A stretch of 49,169 bases of DNA from a virus. Taxonomy: Duplodnaviria > Heunggongvirae > Uroviricota > Caudoviricetes. The notes below the pieces were generated by a model that was not told the DNA's origin, made no database searches, and saw only the letters and a list, made by a program, of their open reading frames with translations. This document shows, piece by piece, positions 11,732-47,930 of the stretch. The position numbers and the translations under genes were made by a program. The DNA is taken from the IMG/VR virus record IMGVR_UViG_2740892489_000001; one strand, given 5' to 3'. Within the stretch, counting starts at the first letter, position 1. Every line of letters starts with the position of its first letter.

Positions 11732-11891
11732 GCCAAATTAATAATCGGAACTTGGTGAAGTGAAAGAGAAAGCATAACCCAAATCTGAATAATTAAATTC
11801 AGCACTGTGAATAAAATAGAGTCCTTAACCGGAGGAATTCCTGCACTCTCAAATCATCAGGAGGCCGCCCGAAAAGGCGGTGGAGATAATA

Positions 11892-12410
11892 ATGGAAATA
11901 ACTAAAGAACGATTATTGGAAATAGCAAATCTTAGTGATGGGGCATTAAGTGATGGGAGAATTATTTCTCCTGATGCTTATGAATCAGTTACAAGTATAG
12001 AAATAATAACGATGGCTAGGATGCTTCTTGCGCGATTCAAAAAAGAATATAAAAAACAGGTAGATAGCAATGCTAATATATATGATATTTTGGACGGTTG
12101 GGGAGCCTGGGCTGTAGCTGAAAATAGTTCTATTGATTGGCAGGAAATAGCTGATAAATATAAAAATGTTGTTCCTCATGGTAAAAAATCACGTCGTCAG
12201 TGCAGCAATGATGAAGGGGGTATAATTGATACCTGCATGTTGAGGCTTAAACAATATAAGATAGATGACTATGAGTTAATTATCGCTCATTTTGTTATGG
12301 GAGTTTCATTGCGTTGTTTAGCTAAGATAAACGAATGTTCAGATGGTAAAATAAGGAAAAAAATGCAAATGGCAATGGGATTTATTGCAGGTTGTATCTA
12401 TTACCGTTGA
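11892..12410 (+). CDS. Q-antiterminator-like protein (QuuD/Q-933W type) with N-terminal extension; AT-rich
   Basis: DGWGAWA...KSRRQC...IIDTCMLRLK...FVMGVSLRCL...CSDGKIRKKMQ resembles the Q family signature as recalled; GGAG 6 nt before ATG 11892. Confidence 0.55.
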   Translation: MEITKERLLEIANLSDGALSDGRIISPDAYESVTSIEIITMARMLLARFKKEYKKQVDSNANIYDILDGWGAWAVAENSSIDWQEIADKYKNVVPHGKKSRRQCSNDEGGIIDTCMLRLKQYKIDDYELIIAHFVMGVSLRCLAKINECSDGKIRKKMQMAMGFIAGCIYYR

Positions 12411-12440: not shown

Positions 12441-13924
12441 TTAACTACAGTAACTATTGATTAAGTGAGAACTGAGCCAAGAGGTAATTGCATTCGTAGC
12501 ATGTTCATCAAGCATTGAGAATCCTAATATGATCATTATAAATGAAATCAGCAAAGTCAGAATCACAACGAATGTGGCTATAATCTGATAAGCTTTGTAT
12601 GCTTCTCTTAATGGTGTGACTGCAAGATTCTCATAGTCAGTATCATCAAGAAAACCATATAGTTTATCTCTCCAGACTAGCCTAGTATTATCAAGTATCT
12701 TAAAGTAATTTTTATTTATGAAGAGAGTTGTAACCTGAGATATAAAAATATATATAGATAACGCGAAGAACATATATGGGAATATGTTATTGGTTATATT
12801 AATCTTTGATGCGTCTAGCGCATATTTTATTGCAAATAGACTTATAACCAGAGCCAGATCTTTCCAAAGAGCGGATGTGATGTCTTTAGACTGACTTATT
12901 ATTTTTTGCGTGTCTTCAGCTAAGGTTTTCCTTAGATCGGACAGAGATTTAATAGTCTCTCTGCTGCTAGCGCGAATGTGGGCCTTATATAGTAATTTTG
13001 CTGACTCAAAGGCCATAGGGAGTTTTTTTTGGTAAACCCTCACAGAAGGATACATACTCTGGCCATTCTCGTGCTAACTCACTTGTGAAGAAAGTATGTT
13101 TGAGTTCAATCTCATTGCCCTCAATAAAGATCCAGTTTATTACAGTTTGTAAAACTGAATAGTCGGAAAGCAGAATGTCTGGATCTCCATAAATTAATTT
13201 TTTTGGTGGCTTTCCAGTTAAACAAATTGATTTCTTTTCATCTGCTAATAATTCATTAACGAGAGTGCGACAAAGCATATTGCAGGAAACTTGTAACCAT
13301 TTTTTGAAAAAGTTGTCCTCTGCCTCAGGCATTTTATAAAGTACCCAAGGAGCTATATCAGATGCAGGCATGAACTCACTAGAATAGAATTTAACGTAGC
13401 TCTGTAAATTGATTGAAGTTCGTACGGTTTCATTAGATTCAATTTTTTTCTGGAGCATGGTTCCATGGCTCAACAGAATATCCTAAAGTTTCAAATCCAT
13501 GTTTCAAACCGAGAATATTCACTTTATTGGTTATTGATACTAAATCATCATTGTGTAGAAAAACATTCCACCCTTCGAGCGTAAAAATATACCTGTTATT
13601 TTCGAATGCAATGCATTTTAGCGTAATGTTAAGTTTATCACCTTCACTGCATGACGATGGTTTTACTTCATCATTACAGTCATCTTTAACAGTAATTTCA
13701 ATCCAATTTGGTACGTTTTCGTAAACGTACTGCCAAAGAATGAGTGCATCTTTGTCCATTTTGGCAGAAATTAGAACGCGCGCAGAATCATTTTTTATTG
13801 ATTCTGATGCCAAAAATTCAGGGTCTTTCCTTGACGCCTGTATAGACTCATCGATTTTTTGAAGTATCGATGTCATCAGTAATAATCCTCGCAGTAGTAA
13901 CAATAATTTGTTTTCGCCCATCAT
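12441..13924 (-). CDS. Hypothetical protein with multi-pass membrane C-terminus; three track ORFs joined across homopolymer indels
   Basis: ORFs 13439..13924, 13006..13473 and 12441..13055 become one frame if T7 13443-13449 and T8 13023-13030 are each one base shorter; hydrophobic helices in last ~200 aa. Confidence 0.5.
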
Positions 13925-14907
13925 CTAAGTTTCTTATTTCTGGACGGTCATCTTCATTATAACTAATTACTACACTTTCTGCAGTTTCAATTTTTCGTCT
14001 TGGTGGTTTATGAATGCCATCTGCTTTTATAGTAAAGGATTCGCCTTCAATACCAGCATTTTTTGTTTGAGTTTTGAATGTGTTGAGAATTGGTGATTTT
14101 TCATCTAACGGCCCAAAAATGCTGGTCAATAACGGAGAAGCATCTTCAGGATTATATTCGAAATCAGCTCTGCTTAAAACTTCATATATTTTATTTACGC
14201 CGCTTTTTTGAATTGACTCTGGCAATAATTCTTTATGCCTTTTGAAGGTTATTTTCAGCGCATCAATAAGCTTATTGCAAAGTTCAATTTCAGAGTTGAC
14301 TCTTTTAACATTTAAGAAGCCTTTAAAATATCCTGAAATATTGGTTCTTTTACTCCTGTCTTTTACAATAACTTTCCCGCCTTTCCCACTTGGATCAAGT
14401 TGAATTAACGCTATTTTTTTGCATTGCCTCAGCTTTTTTTACGAAAGTTTCATGAAATCTTTCTAAAGTAGGCATTTGTTCTTCAGATAACTTTTCGTCA
14501 AGAACATAACGAACCACATCTTCATTATCGTATTTTATAATTGCATAGAATTTTTCCTTATCTGAAACCAATTCAAATAAGAAAAAGCATCCCATACTCG
14601 TGTTACCGCTAGAATGGTGTGACTGAAAATCACTGGCCAGTAGCTTCGATTGTTCTGTAAAACAATTAGCTTCAGCATCTGCTTTATCTCTAATGATACG
14701 CAGGATTCTTTCGGTATTTGAATTCTCCAGAAAAGTGAAAAGATTTCCTTTCAGTGAAGATTTGATACGTTCAAGAAAAAAATCCACATGCTGAACTGGT
14801 TTTATTTCTTTGAGAAGTGTCGGTGCTTCAAGATTCTTACCTACAACGTGAAAGATCATTTTATTAATGACTAAATTTTGTACGTCTTGTTCAGAAAGGA
14901 AACTCAT
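13848..14907 (-). CDS. NdpA/YejK-like (nucleoid-associated protein family) candidate; two track ORFs joined
   Basis: ORFs 14395..14907 and 13848..14225 fuse if T7 14414-14420 or 14434-14440 is one base shorter; motifs MIFHVV, GCFFLFELV...YAIIKYD, IQLDPSGKGGKVIVKDRSK recall the YejK family; GGAG before start. Confidence 0.45.
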
Positions 14908-14948
14908 CCTGACTCCATAATCAAGCAGATTAGAACTATGACTAGTCT

Positions 14949-14977
14949 AGTATATGCATCTTTTGGTGCGTACGCAA
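14949..14977 (-). promoter_or_regulatory. Candidate sigma70 promoter for the minus-strand island genes
   Basis: On minus strand TTGCGT-17 nt-TATACT, about 50 nt upstream of start 14907. Confidence 0.35.
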
Positions 14978-14999
14978 AAGTTCTTAAACTCAAAATGTT

Positions 15000-15236
15000 A
15001 TCGCGGATAGATCTTTGTAGAGTCAGTGATTGGCGCAGGTAGGTGGTAACAGCAGACAAATAGCTGCGGATACTTGAGGCTATCTGCCTCGGGCATGAAC
15101 ATCAAAGGCAGATAGAGAAAAGCCCCAGTTAACATTACGCATCCGGCAAGACGCTTAACATTAATCTGAGGCCAATTTCATGCTTTGCACATGTAGGTTA
15201 GCCTCTTACGTGCCGAAAGGCAAGGAGAAGCAGGCT
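15000..15236. promoter_or_regulatory. hok leader / putative sok antisense region
   Basis: Structured GC-rich leader typical of hok mRNAs upstream of the hok ATG. Confidence 0.4.
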
Positions 15237-15392
15237 ATGAAGCAGCAAAAGGCGATGTTAGTCGCCCTGATCGTCATCTGTTTAACCGTTATAGTGACGG
15301 TACTGGTAACGAGGAAAGACCTCTGCGAGGTACGAATCCGAACCGACCAGACGGAGGTCGCTGTCTTCACAGCTTACGAACTTGGGGAGTAA
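15237..15392 (+). CDS. hok: Hok/Gef-family type I toxin
   Basis: MKQQKAMLVALIVICLTVIVTVLVTRKDLCEVRIRTDQTEVAVFTAYELGE; in-frame upstream extension from 15180 (mok-like). Confidence 0.85.
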   Translation: MKQQKAMLVALIVICLTVIVTVLVTRKDLCEVRIRTDQTEVAVFTAYELGE

Positions 15393-15400
15393 GAGGACCG

Positions 15401-15418
15401 GCGGGGAGAAATCCCCGC
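15401..15418 (+). terminator. Stem-loop at hok 3' end
   Basis: GCGGGGA-GAAA-TCCCCGC immediately after hok stop. Confidence 0.45.
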
Positions 15419-15855
15419 AACCTCTGATGTATTATGCATCCTCAACGCAGCCACAGTTAACCTGATTGGCGGGTTTATTTCATCTGTAAATATATTTATA
15501 AAAATAATGCCCACGCACAGCATAAAACAAAAAGTATTACAGATAAAAAAGGAACGTAATGTGCAGATTTGTTGTTTTCCATATTTACTCACCTTAATAT
15601 GATTAACCCTGATAGGGTTGTTATTTCAGCGGTTTTCAAATGAGATATTATGGTGATCTGACAAATTTGCATAACATTAAAATTTAATTTGTTTAACCGC
15701 TTTTAATAATAAGCGTTGTTTGTATCCCAGCAATCTGTTGTTTGGTTTTTATTCCATTAAGGTGGGGGCTTTACACTGGAGCCAGTTTATTTATACTTCA
15801 TACGTCAGCCTGAACAACTGGCATCTGCTGCGCTGCGCCATCGAGAGATTGAGAA

Positions 15856-16455
15856 ATGGCGCATATACAACTGGTCAAACAAACCTCTTCCGGATTACTT
15901 CTCCCGGCGACGCCGGAGAGTTGTGATTTTCTGCATCAAATCAAAATAGGCGAGTGGATACACGCAGACTTTAAGCGTGTGCGTAACTACGCATTCCACA
16001 AGCGTTTTTTCAAACTCCTGCAACTGGGATTCGATTACTGGACTCCGGTCGGTGGGGCGATCACGCCTCGCGAACGAAAACTGCTGTCTGGTTTCGTTGA
16101 TTACCTGTGCGAATCAGTTGGTCGGGAACACACGCCAGCCCTGAGTGATGCCGCAGAGCAATATCTGAATACAGTTGCGACACGCAGAACCCGGGATACG
16201 GCATTGTTAAAGTCGTTTGAGGCTTTTCGCGAGTGGGTAACCATTCAGGCTGGATTTTACACCGAACATTTTTATCCGGACGGTAGCCATGGGCGTCGGG
16301 CGAAATCCATCGCTTTTGCGAATATGGACGAAACCGAGTTTCAGCAGGTTTATAAATCTGTTCTGAATGTGCTGTGGAACTGGATTCTGTTCCGTAAATT
16401 TTCCTCTCCGGAACAAGTCGAAAATGTGGCCGCGCAGCTGCTGGAGTTTGCGTAA
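15856..16455 (+). CDS. Nin-region phage protein (DUF1367-like by recollection)
   Basis: 199-aa ORF in the position of ydfU-type genes upstream of the late regulator. Confidence 0.45.
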   Translation: MAHIQLVKQTSSGLLLPATPESCDFLHQIKIGEWIHADFKRVRNYAFHKRFFKLLQLGFDYWTPVGGAITPRERKLLSGFVDYLCESVGREHTPALSDAAEQYLNTVATRRTRDTALLKSFEAFREWVTIQAGFYTEHFYPDGSHGRRAKSIAFANMDETEFQQVYKSVLNVLWNWILFRKFSSPEQVENVAAQLLEFA

Positions 16456-16745
16456 TGGTGGATTTACGTAAAGCGGCGCGGGGGCAGATGTGCACCGTCA
16501 GAATTCCTGGCTACTGCAATCACGATCCGGAAACGTCTGTGCTGGCGCATTACCGACTGGCGGGAACGTGCGGAACAGCGACAAAACCACACAATATGCA
16601 GGCGGCGATTGCCTGTAGCTCATGCCACGATCTAATCGACGGGCGGGTAAAAACCATCGATTACACCAAAGAAGAATTACGCCTGATGCATGCAGAAGGT
16701 GTTCTTCGCACACAAGAAATCTGGAGAAAGGAGGGATATTTATGA
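16455..16745 (+). CDS. YbcO-like Cys-rich protein (DUF1364 by recollection)
   Basis: CTVRIPGYCNHDPETSVLAHYRLAG...CSSCHD pattern, 96 aa. Confidence 0.5.
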   Translation: MVDLRKAARGQMCTVRIPGYCNHDPETSVLAHYRLAGTCGTATKPHNMQAAIACSSCHDLIDGRVKTIDYTKEELRLMHAEGVLRTQEIWRKEGYL

Positions 16746-16924
16746 TTTACCCAACGAATACAGGAAAAAGCGGAGAACACCTTCGTCTCACCACGCTGGA
16801 AAGTGTCTGGATTCAGGGAAAACTACGTATGTGGGGGCGCTGGTCGTATATTGGCGGCGGTAAGACGGGGAATATGTTCAACCAGTTGTTGGCCTCTAAA
16901 AAGCTGACAAAAAACGGCAATTAA
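16742..16924 (+). CDS. Hypothetical 60-aa protein
   Basis: GGAGGG Shine-Dalgarno before ATG 16742; overlaps upstream stop. Confidence 0.4.
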   Translation: MIYPTNTGKSGEHLRLTTLESVWIQGKLRMWGRWSYIGGGKTGNMFNQLLASKKLTKNGN

Positions 16925-16940
16925 CGAGGCGCTCCGGAGG

Positions 16941-17286
16941 ATGAAAAAAAGCAGGTCTGAACAAGTCTGAACTTGAGGCTTTTTTGCGGGATATGATTAA
17001 CGGTAAGCAAAAGAGCTGGCTGGCGCATTGTACTGATGCAGAGGCGTTATGTATTGATCGGGTCATAAGTGAGGTGCTGGCAGAGCATCCAGGATTGATT
17101 AGCGTCCTTCGGCAACGGTATGAGGGGCGGGGGATGACCAAACGCAAAATGGCTGAATTGCTAAATGATGCACACCCAGAGTGGTGTTTTAGCACATGCG
17201 AAAAGCGAATTGCTAATTGGTTGGCCGTTGCTGAGTATGCGCTATACATTCCCATGCGAGAATCATTCGCTCAAAAAACGGCTTGA
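16941..17286 (+). CDS. Hypothetical protein at the Q position upstream of the late region; frame broken at A7 run 16944-16950
   Basis: ATG 16941 with GGAGG Shine-Dalgarno gives 9 codons then stop; one fewer A yields a continuous 115-aa frame MKKAGLNKSELEAFLRDMINGK... Confidence 0.4.
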
Positions 17287-17532
17287 TTTTTTACGCATAA
17301 ACTGCTTCAATTTTGCTACGCTTCGCAAAGCTGTATCGCGAGGCGAATCAAGCGCAATTAAACTTTAATAGAACCCGCCATCGAGCGGGTTTTGTTGTTT
17401 CTGTGGTGTGATATCAGAAACGATATTTAATCATCGCCTTCAAAATAAATTTATTTATATGTTGTTGTATATATTTTAAGTGAAAGTGAATTATTCACAT
17501 AAAATAAAAACATATAAATAAATTTACATAAC

Positions 17533-17639: not shown

Positions 17640-17715
<76 letters not shown>

Positions 17716-17718
17716 TAT

Positions 17719-17793
<75 letters not shown>

Positions 17794-23386: not shown

Positions 23387-24486
23387 ATGAGCAGACCGGA
23401 CTGGGGGGCGTTGCAGCAGGAGTATATTGCTGAATACACCCGCTCCGGTATATCTCCGGTGGCATGGTGTGAAGCAAGGGGACTGAACTACGCAACAGCC
23501 CGTCGTTACATCAAAAAAAACTCCGAAAAATGCGCAGAAAGAAAATGCGCAAAACTGCGCAAAAAAAGTGCGCGAAAAAAAAACTGCGCAGACTGCGCAA
23601 AGGCAGAACGGAAAATCTCAGAAAAAAAAAGGCTGTATCCGATGCACTCCTGATTGAGGGGGACACGGAAGAAATTTCGTTCTGCCCCGATGAATTCGGT
23701 ATTTCTGACCAGCAGGCAAAATTCGCCATGTTGGTTGCTCAGGGGAAAAAGCCGACAGAGGCATACCGACTGGCTGGTTATGAGGGGCAAGGTGCGACAG
23801 CTAACAGCAACGCCAGCCGTATGCTTAGAAATGCCAGGGTTTATCGTGCTATCAGCTACTTCCGCAATCAGTACCAGAAACGCTATACCGCAGACCTGGA
23901 TTTACTGGTGAGCCAGTTGATGGCCATTGTCCAGGCCGACCCCAATCAGTTGGCACAATTTCGCCGTGTTAACTGCCGTTATTGCTGGGGCGAGAATCAT
24001 CTCTACCAGTGGCGTGATATTGCAGAATTCGATAAGGCTGCGGCACAGGCCTCCAGAGATGGTAAACCCGAGCCGGAATATGGAGGCCTCGGCTTTGTTG
24101 ATAACGCCATACCCAATCCGGATTGCCCGAAGTGCTGCGGTGAGGGAACGGGACAGCTTTATATGGCTGATACCACACTGCTTGATGGGGATGCGCGGCA
24201 ATTATATGCAGGGTCAAAGCTCGGAAAATACGGTGTTGAGATCCTGCTGGAGGATAAGGCTGCCGCCCGGCGTGAATTGTTGCGTTTGCTTTCTGCTGGC
24301 GGGGCATTATGTGCAGATAAACGGCTACAGGAACTGGAAATTGAACGGCGCAGAATAGAAAACCAGAAGCTGCGCAAAGAGATCGAAACGGTGGAGGATA
24401 ATGAACATCCCCAGCCTGTGGCGATCAATATTAATGTGGTTGATGCCAGATTAAGGAGTGATGAAGATGATCTCTCCGACGCTTAA
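23387..24486 (+). CDS. Terminase small subunit; frame ambiguous through A-run repeat region 23513-23630
   Basis: N-terminal ORF 23387..23653 and ORF 23530..24486 (AKFAMLVAQGKKPTEAYRLAGY...ANSNASRMLRNARV) separated only by A8/A7/A9 runs. Confidence 0.6.
23513..23630. repeat. Array of six TGCGC(A/G) hexamers interleaved with A6-A9 tracts
   Basis: TGCGCA at 23531, 23546, 23556, 23585, 23594 and TGCGCG at 23569; A runs at 23513, 23561, 23575, 23622. Confidence 0.5.
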
Positions 24487-32178: not shown

Positions 32179-33144
32179 GTGAGTTCAGGTGCAAAGGTTA
32201 TCTCGGCATTTATCCGGGAGACGGTTGCAGGCACTACGCCAGCAAGTGGTGACTGGAGTTTATTAAAACGCACAAGCTGGGGAGTAAAACCCACCCAGAA
32301 TAAAGGCGAAAATAATGAGATTGGTGGCTCCCGGATGGCTCAGGGGGCGACGCCTGGCACTGTGGATGTCGGCGGTGATGTTGGTACCAAATTTCGCTGG
32401 GGTCAACATGATGATTTTCTTGCATCCTGTTTCGGCGCGGAATGGTCAGGCGATTCTCTGACAATGGGGAATGAGCGAATAACATTTTCTCTGGCGACCT
32501 ATGCGTCCGATGTCGGAATTGCCTCTGTCGTCAGAGGAGCGCAGGTTGGCTCATGGAAAATGCAGATCCCTAACGACGGCGATATTACAGCGACCGTAAC
32601 CTTTGCCGGACTGGACTGGGAATCAAAGGCCGATGATACGAATTTTATCAAAGGCGAACCTGTGGATAGTGCAGGAAAGCTACGTTATTCGTTTAAGGAG
32701 GTTTCAGCAGTAAGCCTGAATGGTGTTGCCGGAGGTAACGGTTTTTGTATCGACAGTTTTGATATTCAGTTCGATAACAAACTCCAGACACAGCGTTGTA
32801 TCGGGACTGGCTCGCCTTATGCAGGAGCAAATATTCCGACTACTTTTACACCGTCCGGTACGGTGACGCTTTCATGGTCTAAAGCCGCGTGGGAAATCTG
32901 GAGTAAAACACTGACTGGAGAAACAGTTCCGTTCAGCTTCACGCTTTCGAATGGAGAGGGGGCATACACTTTCAGTTTCCCGAAGGTTCAGGTGTCAGGT
33001 GAATGGCCTGATGGGGGTAATAGCGACATTATCCAGGTTCAATTGAGCATTACCGCAGCAGATGAAGCACCTACGATAACCAGAAAAAAAAAAAATTCCC
33101 CGGCTGCCGTGATCGCAAAAGCCAGTGCTGAGGCGATTAGTTGA
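32179..33144 (+). CDS. Major tail (tube) protein candidate; C-terminus passes an A12 run
   Basis: 321 aa directly upstream of the G/G-T chaperone pair and tape measure; A12 at 33084-33095 makes the true C-terminus uncertain. Confidence 0.55.
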   Translation: MSSGAKVISAFIRETVAGTTPASGDWSLLKRTSWGVKPTQNKGENNEIGGSRMAQGATPGTVDVGGDVGTKFRWGQHDDFLASCFGAEWSGDSLTMGNERITFSLATYASDVGIASVVRGAQVGSWKMQIPNDGDITATVTFAGLDWESKADDTNFIKGEPVDSAGKLRYSFKEVSAVSLNGVAGGNGFCIDSFDIQFDNKLQTQRCIGTGSPYAGANIPTTFTPSGTVTLSWSKAAWEIWSKTLTGETVPFSFTLSNGEGAYTFSFPKVQVSGEWPDGGNSDIIQVQLSITAADEAPTITRKKKNSPAAVIAKASAEAIS

Positions 33145-47353: not shown

Positions 47354-47930
47354 TGGCATTCAGAATGAGTGAACAACCACGGACCATAAAAATTTATAAT
47401 CTGCTGGCCGGAACTAATGAATTTATTGGTGAAGGTGACGCATATATTCCGCCTCATACAGGTCTGCCAGCAAACAGTACCGATATTGCACCACCAGATA
47501 TTCCTGCTGGCTTTGTGGCTGTTTTCAACAGTGATGAGGCATCGTGGCATCTCGTTGAAGACCATCGGGGTAAAACGGTTTATGACGTAGCGTCAGGGGA
47601 CGAGTTATTTATTTCTGAACTCGGTCCGTTACCGGAAAATGTTACCTGGTTATCGCCGGAAGGGGAGTTTCAGAAGTGGAACGGCACAGCCTGGGTGAAG
47701 GATACGGAAGCAGAAAAAACTGTTCCGGATCCGGGAGGCGGAAGAAACAAAAAAACAACCTGATGCAGGTAGCCAGTGAGCATATTGCGCCGCTTCAGGA
47801 TGCTGCAGATCTGGAAATTGCAACGGAGGAAGAAATCTCGTTGCTGGAAGCATGGAAAAAGTATCGGGTATTGCTGAACCGTGTTGATACGTCAACTTCA
47901 CAGGATATTGAATGGCCAGCACTGCCGTAG
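47353..47930 (+). CDS. Tail fibre assembly protein (Tfa-like); frame broken at A6 47714-47719 and A7 47749-47755
   Basis: [37 protein letters not shown]... then C-terminal [21 protein letters not shown]... in ORF 47676..47930. Confidence 0.8.

Follow-up and report, generated by a model that had tools for sequence, protein, structure and literature searches.

In this study, the region 15030-15484 of the window (the whole 49,169-nucleotide stretch of DNA that was analysed, a Rac-like lambdoid prophage of E. coli at ttcA) is identified by homology as a hokW/hokD-type hok/mok/sok type I toxin-antitoxin module, and we believe that its toxin arm is probably damaged, with toxin expression attenuated or silent, while its Sok arm is intact. 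[quoted passage not shown] A module of this kind at this prophage site is ordinary and already annotated; hok/sok is annotated routinely in lambdoid prophages, and the RefSeq label of the hok gene is "Hok/Gef family protein". An earlier note on this DNA had proposed a hok/sok-type type I toxin-antitoxin locus at 15000-15420. This identification is correct: by homology to hokW/sokW, the locus has the toxin ORF with its overlapping mok, a conserved leader, a predicted fold-back, and a promoter and terminator for Sok, and family covariation backs the mRNA structure. Each element that the note had named was found, far above chance. The locus stands where it was placed, but its end does not, since the fbi element lies beyond position 15420 (Table 1). 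When 14850-15900 was searched permissively against Rfam, no further RNA family came up.

The window contains long-read indel errors elsewhere, but positions 14415-16908, which include the hok region, are identical to NZ_CP018957, so these errors leave the hok region unaffected. The same allele (100% identical) was present in 28 of 5,426 complete E. coli genomes, with sources including humans, a dog, a chicken and river water, and a cattle isolate was one base away from it; Ecol_316 and THO-008 are among the carrier strains. Identity across 28 genomes of such varied origin suggests that the allele is stably carried, with no visible decay. It has 12 private substitutions at sites that are invariant among 10 close relatives, the joint longest branch.

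Table 1. Features of the hok/mok/sok locus in the window, in order of position
Feature	Position	Strand	Sequence or description	Basis
hok promoter remnant	15030-15061	+	-35 TTGGCG (15030-15035), 20-nt spacer, ACAAAT (15056-15061)	family -10 position
Putative full-length mok-hok mRNA	15068-15453	+		ends by homology to R1 hok and hokW; aligned to 23 hok mRNAs
tac element	15068-15079	+	GGAUACUUGAGG; family consensus GGGYGCUUGAGR; private G>A at 15070 and 15072	alignment, cmscan
Conserved 5' stem-loop	15080-15115	+	CUAUCUGCC / GGCAGAUAG	consensus helix 2
Predicted Sok antisense RNA	15118-15188	-	71 nt (15188>15118)	homology to annotated sokW, sokC and sokB
Anti-SD box	15120-15126	+	AAGCCCC (ucb / mok aSD in PMC9841398)	helix 3
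mok Shine-Dalgarno	15168-15171	+	GAGG, 8 nt 5' of the mok ATG	read from sequence
mok ORF	15180-15392	+	70 aa; 19-aa N-terminal extension MLCTCRLASYVPKGKEKQA	in frame with hok, 19 codons upstream
Sok promoter	15195-15223	-	-35 TTGCCT (15223>15218), 17-nt spacer, -10 TAACCT (15200>15195)	homology
Long-range helix, upstream half	15203-15209	+	CUCUUAC	helix 4
hok SD	15222-15227	+	AAGGAG	precedes hok ORF
hok toxin ORF	15237-15392	+	51 aa, MKQQKAMLVALIVICLTVIVTVLVTRKDLCEVRIRTDQTEVAVFTAYELGE	Pfam and PHROG matches
Long-range helix, downstream half	15389-15395	+	GUAAGAG, across the hok stop codon	helix 4
3' terminal stem-loop of processed mRNA	15401-15418	+	GCGGGGA-GAAA-UCCCCGC	helix 12
fbi (fold-back inhibition) element	15440-15452	+	CCUCAA-C-GCAGCC; private C>G at 15450	position conserved
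Terminator-like hairpin with T-run, possible transcription end	15459-15484	+	3' of fbi	consensus scan only

Toxins of the hok/sok family measure about 50 aa, have a transmembrane helix at the N-terminus and share a conserved Cys/Thr/Leu/Glu pattern (PF01848). The Hok of the window matched Pfam PF01848 HOK_GEF along the entire profile (positions 1-42 of 42; 76.5 bits, cut-off 22 bits; E 1.1e-21) and PHROG 251, "MokW-like host killing" (3e-30). It carries the Hok/Gef family pattern, keeping the invariant C15, T17, L29, E31 and E40 together with the near-invariant R26 and C30. The alignment to Hok-family toxins that the earlier note had suggested bears this out, as the protein is 90% identical both to HokD (relF; Qin cryptic prophage, K-12) and to the Hok of mEp460, and 84% identical to HokW. 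The mok-like extension suspected upstream of hok proved to be an in-frame mok ORF, arranged as in the annotated mokW and mokC and homologous to both. This overlapping mok has its own Shine-Dalgarno sequence, and in R1 the corresponding GAGG serves as the mok SD (PMC9841398). Translational coupling of mok and hok is putative here.

Judged from its sequence, the Sok arm of the window allele is intact. The predicted RNA combines a long hairpin and a U-tract with a 15-nt single-stranded 5' tail over the mok start codon; its fold has an energy of -26.8 kcal/mol (z -4.3), and none of 200 shuffled sequences folded as well. The corresponding coordinates of 933W carry the annotated sokW, whose 5' end falls on base 9 of mokW (8 nt beyond the A of the mokW ATG). 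The Sok promoter was placed by homology rather than by the consensus promoter scan, which left it uncalled; it has 7 of 12 consensus matches, and its -10 has T1, A2 and T6. Window positions 15189-15239 are identical to 933W, and the Sok promoter is thus identical to the sokW promoter, with the predicted start 7 nt downstream of the -10. Antitoxin activity was lost when the -10 region of sokW was mutated (TAACCT to GAGCCG; PMC8621323). An antisense promoter had been anticipated near 15130-15200; the promoter is present, but it lies further along than this range, which mostly covers the body of Sok. As in other members of the family, a cis-encoded Sok of about 60-70 nt directed against the mok initiation region, with its own promoter and terminator, is predicted here.

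The structured leader described earlier is also supported. The leader (15068-15242, plus strand) matched the full Rfam model RF01794, "sok", with 99.4 bits (gathering score 59, E 2e-21). We rejected this match as evidence on its own for an antisense gene: it is on the plus strand, and the model follows the sense of the hok mRNA, with the hok ATG at its end. The putative full-length mRNA, whose ends we infer from the homologues, had a minimum free energy of -139.8 kcal/mol (z -4.5 against shuffles). The full-length R1 hok mRNA is roughly 398 nt long, and the R1 control with ends defined in the same way was 398-399 nt.

Covariation was assessed in 24 hok mRNAs from Escherichia, Kluyvera, Photorhabdus, Pantoea and plasmid R1. 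For R1, the intact R1-type locus L012 was used, and the R1-type plasmid copies L007 (IS150) and L013 (ISKpn28), in which the leader is interrupted, were dropped. Across the 73 consensus pairs, 95.1% of cells were paired, compared with 37-43% when the partners were slid, and compensatory changes occurred at 26 pairs; the observed values were reached by none of 500 shuffles. The aligned sequences thus strongly back the consensus pairs. Helix 2, the 5' stem-loop, has nine pairs (three with compensatory changes, 96% of cells paired). Helix 3 joins 15122-15132 with 15161-15172, and its anti-SD box is predicted to have two alternative partners, the mok SD when the mRNA is closed and tac when it is open. 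Helix 4 has seven pairs, with 97.6% of cells paired, and it is without compensatory changes because its variation sits on one side only. The 3' stem-loop, which had likewise been described, is helix 12 (six pairs, three with compensatory changes), and in R1 this hairpin shields the truncated mRNA from exonucleases (PMC9841398). The fbi element lies 45-62 nt past the stop codon, as in most of about 30 loci. The inner UUGAGG:CCUCAA half of the fold-back was omitted by RNAalifold, as the subgroups differ in register by a one-base bulge, and this half was tested per locus with RNAduplex; K-12 hokA, hokC, hokD and hokE, whose 5' or 3' elements are lost to IS insertions or relBE, were left out of the fold-back test. 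Folding of the leader in search of fold-back and sok-target elements, as the earlier note had advised, revealed a conserved structure with the covarying mRNA fold of the family. The window retained 71 of the 73 consensus pairs, and both broken pairs fall in the tac-fbi helix.

By analogy with R1 hok/sok and hokW/sokW, a stable mok-hok mRNA would be closed by pairing of the 5' tac with the 3' fbi. Slow trimming from the 3' end would let tac switch to the anti-SD box and free the mok SD, and translation of mok would then permit translation of the 51-aa membrane toxin Hok. The short-lived Sok, made from its own promoter, would pair with the mok start region and block mok and hok translation. As in the family, RNase III would be expected to cut the Sok:hok duplex, and decay of Sok would lead to killing. 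In this allele, we suspect that several steps of the toxin arm are impaired.

The first suspected lesion is in the hok promoter. In members of the family, a constitutive sigma-70 promoter has its -10 placed 6 nt 5' of the GGG end, and a TAnnnT hexamer was found at this place in 27 of 27 comparison loci; the window, with ACAAAT there, is the only exception among the 28. The -35 TTGGCG is common to the window and mEp460, whereas the spacer is 20 nt in the window and 17 nt in mEp460. The consensus scan called no plus-strand sigma-70 site for hok, and when the criteria were relaxed to look for another hok promoter upstream, the best candidates reached 7/12. The ACAAAT and the 20-nt spacer would together amount to a promoter lesion. 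Because the hok promoter of R1 is weak by nature (PMC3827094), a poor match to the consensus is no proof of silence.

The second suspected lesion is in the fold-back. The two tac changes and the C>G at 15450 break two of the six outer fold-back pairs, 15070-15450 (A.G) and 15072-15448 (A.C), and the window is alone among 24 loci in having these tac-fbi pairs broken. The NC line of cmscan likewise marked tac positions 3 and 5 (15070 and 15072) as non-canonical pairs. The duplex of the tac 12-mer with the 3' UTR was calculated at -8.9 kcal/mol, no better than shuffles, whereas the other loci, two excepted, gave values from -14.6 to -21.4 kcal/mol. The full-length RNA is nevertheless predicted to have the fold-back as its ground state, through UUGAGG:CCUCAA and two G-C pairs.

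The third suspected lesion concerns the translatable form. The tac:anti-SD (ucb) stem, which opens the mok SD in the processed mRNA of the family, has a duplex energy of -2.4 kcal/mol in the window against -10.7 kcal/mol in 20 of 23 relatives, and the two tac changes would thus nearly abolish it. Position 15072 corresponds to G4 of R1, and the R1 change G4A is a loss-of-function mutation, under which toxicity disappeared and Hok translation fell drastically (PMC9841398). When the two tac bases were reverted in silico, the predicted tac:aSD pairing in the truncated RNA rose from 0.06 to 0.49. The partition-function model recovered even the known R1 open form weakly (P 0.14), so the in-silico numbers are suggestive only, and we used the pairing values for comparison within one background. 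The tac:anti-SD defect matters for activity and leaves family descent untouched.

From these changes in the promoter, in tac and fbi and in the tac:anti-SD stem, we infer that the toxin arm is probably attenuated. Against this stand the intact hok and mok ORFs, the conserved Hok residues, the stable carriage of the allele and the fold-back predicted for the full-length RNA. The earlier note had called Hok near-canonical; the match to the family stands, but the allele alone lacks the TAnnnT hok -10 (about 28 loci), and it alone has broken tac-fbi pairs and an unstable tac:anti-SD stem (24 loci). On the features read here, the label "Hok/Gef family protein" should not be taken to mean an active toxin.

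It is possible, though in our opinion doubtful, that the locus is a fully functional hok/mok/sok like hokW/sokW or R1, with the changes in tac, fbi and the promoter being either tolerated or a means of tuning the kinetics. The coding and antisense parts are all intact, nearly all conserved pairs and the predicted full-length fold-back are kept, and the allele is unchanged in its 28 genomes. The hokW/sokW pair, about 89% identical, is an active toxin-antitoxin pair that aids Sp5 release (PMC8621323), and R1 hok/sok is reported to lower T4 plating (cited in PMC8621323 and PMC3827094). If so, the module could stabilise the prophage, kill the host on transcription shut-off (abortive infection) or aid lysis after induction. 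The missing -10, the weak tac:aSD stem and the loss of function caused by the equivalent single change in R1 argue against full function, and the anti-SD box has no compensating change.

Two further readings give the private changes a role. One is rewired regulation: an RNA starting at or before 15063 would permit a re-registered fold-back between 15063-15068 (GCUGCG) and 15446-15451 (CGCAGC), a 6-bp helix made perfect by the C>G at 15450, and an RNA starting at 15063 is predicted to gain 7.6 kcal/mol in folding energy, closed by this helix. The other is a locus that serves as a source of Sok only; the Sok promoter and RNA are intact, and the Sok 5' tail region is identical in another E. coli hok locus (L027). 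In that case, Sok might neutralise incoming hok mRNAs with the same Sok target (anti-addiction or immunity). There is no convincing upstream promoter, as the scan called none and the best candidates were those noted above, and inspection of 15030-15068 revealed no substitute for tac in the extension that could open the anti-SD box. With support that is entirely in silico, we consider rewiring or an antitoxin-only locus very unlikely. A broader proposal holds that the allele is not mere decay but such a re-registered or antitoxin-only derivative, with Sok guarding the lysogen against related hok phages, and, separately, that hok/sok marks the fixed edge of a Rac-like defence hotspot; this also seems unlikely to us. 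Probable attenuation of the toxin arm is our preferred reading.

The earlier note had also placed the locus beside candidate defence genes, as in defence islands. The backbone order in Rac-like phages is lygF - cargo - mok/hok - rem - irsA - ybcO - Q, and the slot directly 5' of hok has PADLOC matches to PD-T7-1, PDC-S15 and PD-Lambda-2_C/beta + cII in mEp460, Tritos and Rac-SA53. Co-localisation with a defence slot is thus upheld by the cargo of sister phages, but recruitment is not: hok/sok is a fixed backbone module of Rac-like phages and was not recruited beside defence genes. In the window, the slot holds an unrecognised pair, a 477-aa protein and an NA37-like protein. PADLOC gave no match for Hok, the 477-aa neighbour or the 352-aa NA37-like neighbour, and solved-structure searches with the two neighbour proteins found nothing. 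That hok/sok and this two-gene cassette (12441-14907, minus strand) form one defence system is, in our view, extremely improbable. The two are adjacent and divergent, and the same slot holds known defence genes in sister phages, but hok/sok stays while the cargo changes wholly (PD-T7-1, PDC-S15, beta/cII-like genes, small ORFs, a methyltransferase), hok occurs without such neighbours in 933W, plasmids and chromosomes, and the neighbours in the window fit no PADLOC model. The hok/sok module is a handy conserved landmark for the variable cargo slot of Rac-like prophages, and the defence genes of sister phages in this slot make the unannotated cassette of the window a reasonable candidate for further work. 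NZ_CP018957 has an intact copy of this cassette at 3633860-3636323.

By itself, the locus contributes little new, as hokW/sokW has already been studied experimentally. The allele is of interest in that its lesions fall exactly in elements that mutagenesis of R1 hok found necessary for toxin expression, so it offers a naturally occurring test of the tac-stem model within the hokW subgroup.

The closest studied relative is hokW/mokW/sokW of 933W and Sakai prophage 5 (Takada et al. 2021, PMC8621323), with about 89% DNA identity over the mRNA and 90% over the BLAST stretch. Both loci have mok in frame with hok, a lambdoid prophage as carrier, a 71-nt Sok in the same relative place, identical Sok promoters and hok translation-initiation regions, and a Sok hairpin 18-20 nt longer than that of hokC. 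In contrast, tac reads GGAUAC in the window and GGGUGC in hokW, fbi reads GCAGCC and GCACCC, and the -10 reads ACAAAT and TAGAAT, respectively. The 5' tail of Sok also differs at several positions (GCAAAGCAUGAAAUUGG in the window, GUUCAGCAUGGAUUGAG in sokW), so cross-regulation is unlikely. The locus of the window lies in the early right operon, whereas that of 933W lies near the right end.

In its position, the locus resembles hokD and the copies of the Rac-type phages Rac-SA53, Rac 442/2 and mEp460, which share the backbone site 5' of rem / irsA (DUF1367) / ybcO / Q. Unlike in that arrangement, there is no rem between hok and DUF1367 in the window. The leader and sok of K-12 hokD were lost to relBE, whereas the window retains both, and tac, fbi and the -10 are all canonical in the copies of the Rac-type phages.

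The founding member, R1 hok/sok (parB), has the same set of elements, namely the tac-fbi fold-back and the mok-hok coupling (both predicted in the window), the 5' stem-loop, the anti-SD:SD hairpin, the 3' hairpin and Sok with its promoter inside mok, but the identity is only 44% for DNA and 39% for Hok. In R1, mok is out of the hok frame (58-nt offset, with positions from PMC9841398), whereas it is in frame in the window, and R1 hok/sok is plasmid-borne and acts by post-segregational killing.

K-12 hokA, hokC, hokE, hokB and hokD resemble the locus of the window in having an intact toxin ORF in damaged regulatory surroundings, and hokA, hokC and hokE adjoin IS150 or IS186. Pedersen and Gerdes reportedly concluded in 1999 that the K-12 hok loci are inactive through IS insertions, point mutations or rearrangement. 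In contrast to these inactivated loci, the locus of the window has no IS or rearrangement, and its suspected lesions take the form of point changes affecting the -10, the spacer, tac and fbi.

There is no doubt that the locus belongs by descent to the hok/sok family, within which it falls in the hokW/hokD subgroup. The 51-aa peptide matched Pfam HOK_GEF over the entire profile (E 1.1e-21) and PHROG 251 'MokW-like host killing' (3e-30), and C15, T17, R26, L29, C30, E31 and E40 were kept. Its identity to K-12 HokD, mEp460 Hok, HokW and the Hok of R1, the founding plasmid member, was 90%, 90%, 84% and 39%, respectively, and the hok/mok/sok of HannyBb, mEp460, Rac-SA53, Tritos and 933W/VT2-Sakai was ~89-92% identical over ~390-420 nt. 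Together with the Rfam RF01794 match, the in-frame mok and an antisense Sok promoter recognised by homology, this confirms the earlier note, which had read the locus as hok/sok-type. Studies of hokW/sokW (933W; Sakai prophage 5, Sp5) have shown that it is a type I toxin-antitoxin pair with a 71-nt Sok, that mutation of the sokW -10 region abolishes protection, and that the pair aids Sp5 release after induction (PMC8621323). What is known of R1 and hokW allows the mode of action of the present locus to be described by analogy. The hok/sok feature is already known; only two points are beyond routine, namely that this allele is probably attenuated and that hok/sok is useful as a landmark of a defence-cargo slot.

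Features of the hok/sok locus and the adjoining cassette
Feature	Position	Strand	Basis or remark
hok toxin ORF	15237-15392	+	51 aa, MKQQKAMLVALIVICLTVIVTVLVTRKDLCEVRIRTDQTEVAVFTAYELGE
mok ORF, 70 aa, in frame with hok	start 15180, 57 nt upstream of hok start	+	ORF reading
mok SD GAGG	15168-15171	+	sequence reading
hok SD AAGGAG	15222-15227	+	sequence reading
Sok RNA, 71 nt	15188 to 15118	-	homology to sokW
Sok promoter: -35 TTGCCT (15223>15218), 17-nt spacer, -10 TAACCT (15200>15195)	15195-15223	-	homology
Consensus helices: tac-fbi closing helix; 5' stem-loop; anti-SD:SD (Sok-target) hairpin		+	RNAalifold
Long-range consensus helix	15203-15209 with 15389-15395	+	RNAalifold
Further consensus helices: hok initiation region with 3' part of CDS; 3' terminal hairpin		+	RNAalifold
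Broken pairs of the tac-fbi helix	15070.15450 (A.G), 15072.15448 (A.C)		alignment of 24
Two-gene cassette directly upstream of hok	12441-14907	-	intact copy at 15495-17958 of L001

The window matches, at 99.9% identity, a Rac-like lambdoid prophage beside ttcA in E. coli Ecol_316 (NZ_CP018957), where RefSeq annotates the hok ORF as 'Hok/Gef family protein'. It differs from this record by 10 substitutions and ~31 single-base indels, nearly all an extra A or T (for example at 13023, 13443, 14414, 23513-23622 and 33084-33086). Differences of this kind are typical of errors in long-read assemblies. Neighbouring ORFs are fragmented by the extra bases, and the cassette shows up as five. Because 14415-16908 is without any difference, the hok region is clean. 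The same prophage carries a second type I system, the RalA antitoxin sRNA opposite ralR (1558-1736, +; RF02694, 225 bits), and beyond the part compared with the reference there is a full-length IS009 match (47696-47896, +; RF02111, 210 bits).

The gene order of Rac-type phages is ydaU/V/W, lygF, variable cargo, mok/hok, rem, irsA (DUF1367), ybcO and Q, and therefore hok/sok is part of the backbone. The slot immediately upstream of hok holds PD-T7-1 in mEp460 (E 4e-157), PDC-S15 in Tritos (1e-98), a PD-Lambda-2_C/beta-like gene with a cII-like gene in Rac-SA53, and small ORFs or a methyltransferase in other phages. In the window, the 477-aa protein of the cassette had no match in Pfam, PADLOC, PHROGs, NCBIfam or PDB sequences, and the second product is a 352-aa NA37 (YejK/NdpA)-like protein (Pfam 1e-12). 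Defence genes occupy the same slot in the sister phages, and on grounds of location we regard the two genes as a candidate defence system. The impression that toxin-antitoxin and defence genes lie side by side here is supported, but nothing suggests that hok/sok acts together with the cassette proteins. Overall, the interpretation in the earlier note is supported in part. Elsewhere, hok/sok has very different surroundings: it occurs close to the right end of 933W, on plasmids of the IncF and IncY types and in chromosomes.

Several other features lie around this slot. The AT-rich stretch 15495-15855 between hok and the DUF1367 gene is without annotated gene, is common to only four phage records, and has several terminator-like hairpins and a promoter-like TTTACA-16-TATACT at 15770-15797; other Rac-type phages have rem there. 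One antiterminator-type gene (11880-12410, +; 'antiterminator Q family protein' in the reference) is just upstream of the cassette; another (~16740-17290, +; DUF1133) is downstream of DUF1367/DUF1364, at the backbone position annotated as Q in Rac-SA53 and Rac 442/2. Two adjoining tRNA genes (17640-17790, +), annotated in the reference as tRNA-Thr and tRNA-Gly, follow the Q-like gene and precede the lysis genes.

Rfam RF01794 'sok' matched the leader end to end (15068-15242, + strand; 99.4 bits against a gathering score of 59). Because this model is written in the hok-mRNA sense, its last bases being the hok ATG, the match identifies the leader and not the antisense gene as such. The Sok coordinates were instead transferred through a gap-free alignment from sokW of 933W, whose record carries hokW, mokW and sokW annotations. 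There, sokW lies on the strand opposite to mokW, and its 5' end falls on the ninth base of that gene, 8 nt beyond the A of the start ATG; SokC and mokC of K-12 show the same relation. The window is identical to 933W over 15189-15239, and Sok starts 7 nt downstream of the -10 box. Its predicted fold is a 15-nt single-stranded 5' tail with the anti-mok-start CAU, a long hairpin (-26.8 kcal/mol, z -4.3) and then CUUUU. Both an antisense promoter and a conserved leader are therefore present, the promoter at 15195-15223 and not at 15130-15200, where the earlier note had proposed to look for it.

The hok loci were sampled as one genome per species, plus phages, K-12 and an intact R1-type plasmid copy. 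E. coli-type hok (90-93% Hok identity) also appeared on contigs that carry the labels of a Veillonella parvula MAG, Acinetobacter idrijaensis and Xanthomonas pisi (L014, L039 and L040), which are probably contamination or mis-binning. For 24 putative full-length mRNAs (Escherichia, Kluyvera, Photorhabdus, Pantoea, IncY plasmid and R1), RNAalifold yielded a consensus of 73 pairs, which form 12 helices. Paired cells made up 95.1%, compared with 37-43% when partners were slid by 1-3 columns; compensatory changes occurred at 26 pairs, compared with 2-11 after sliding; and none of 500 shuffles reached the observed values. In an alignment-independent test, most of ~30 loci had the best partner of their 12-nt 5' end 45-62 nt past the stop codon, with duplex energies of -14.6 to -21.4 kcal/mol, and the fold-back covaried (GGUGC:GCACC versus GGCGC:GCGCC). 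The full-length R1 hok mRNA is ~398 nt, in agreement with the 398-399 nt that the same end definition gave here. The window's putative full-length RNA, 15068-15453, folded with z -4.5 and its two ends paired; without the last ~35 nt, the 5' end was predicted to refold locally. The interval 15000-15420 first given to the locus is too short, and the 3' fold-back inhibition element fbi (15440-15452) lies beyond it.

All but two of the 73 consensus pairs are kept in the window (71), and both lost pairs, broken in no other sequence of the 24, are in the helix of fbi with tac, the 5' element at 15068-15079. Its isolated tac/3'-UTR duplex (-8.9 kcal/mol) was not better than shuffles, although the whole-RNA prediction still gives the fold-back through UUGAGG:CCUCAA and two terminal G-C pairs. 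The G>A changes at 15070 and 15072 also cost tac its pairing with the anti-SD box AAGCCCC (15120-15126), a pairing that would free the mok SD once 3' processing has made the mRNA translatable. This duplex is -2.4 kcal/mol in the window against -10.7 in 20 of 23 relatives; the stem is part of the Rfam consensus structure, in which cmscan marked window positions 3 and 5 as non-canonical, and comparison of the box with relatives revealed no compensating change. For the truncated RNA, the predicted pairing was 0.06, and it rose to 0.49 with both bases reverted in silico, but the model is weak: R1, for which experiments have established the open form, scores only 0.14. Position 15072 is equivalent to G4 of R1 hok mRNA, and saturation mutagenesis of R1 hok/Sok has shown that every substitution of G4, C5 or T6 abolishes toxicity and that G4A drastically reduces Hok translation (PMC9841398). 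As for the promoter, every one of the 27 comparison loci shows a TAnnnT hexamer at a distance of exactly 6 nt upstream from the GGG 5' end, and the window has ACAAAT in its place; the -35 TTGGCG is common to the window and mEp460, with a spacer of 20 nt in the window versus 17, and a search of the upstream + strand revealed no better hok promoter.

We believe that toxin expression from this allele is, on balance, probably strongly reduced while Sok is still made. Against this, neither the hok nor the mok ORF is damaged, varied hosts carry the allele in conserved form, the promoter of R1 hok is itself weak by nature (PMC3827094), and the 5' end was assigned by homology, the start site being unmapped. 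The allele is a discrete variant in 28 of 5,426 complete E. coli genomes, and it has 12 private substitutions, counted at sites that do not vary in 10 close relatives. If transcription started at or before 15063, its private C>G change at 15450 would make a 6-bp GCUGCG:CGCAGC helix complete, and this helix could re-register the fold-back; we judged this unlikely because no promoter is evident at or before 15063.

Attenuation of this allele would resemble other hok loci. The R1-type plasmid leaders of two comparison loci are interrupted, L007 (NZ_CP141206) by IS150 and L013 (NZ_CP022920) by ISKpn28; tac and most of the Sok target are lost, the toxin ORF is left, and both are further examples of regulatory inactivation. 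Pedersen and Gerdes reportedly found in 1999 that the chromosomal hok loci of K-12 are inactive, and IS elements flank K-12 hokA, hokC and hokE. It is this regulatory inactivation of the K-12 loci that a strong reduction of toxin expression from the window's allele would parallel.
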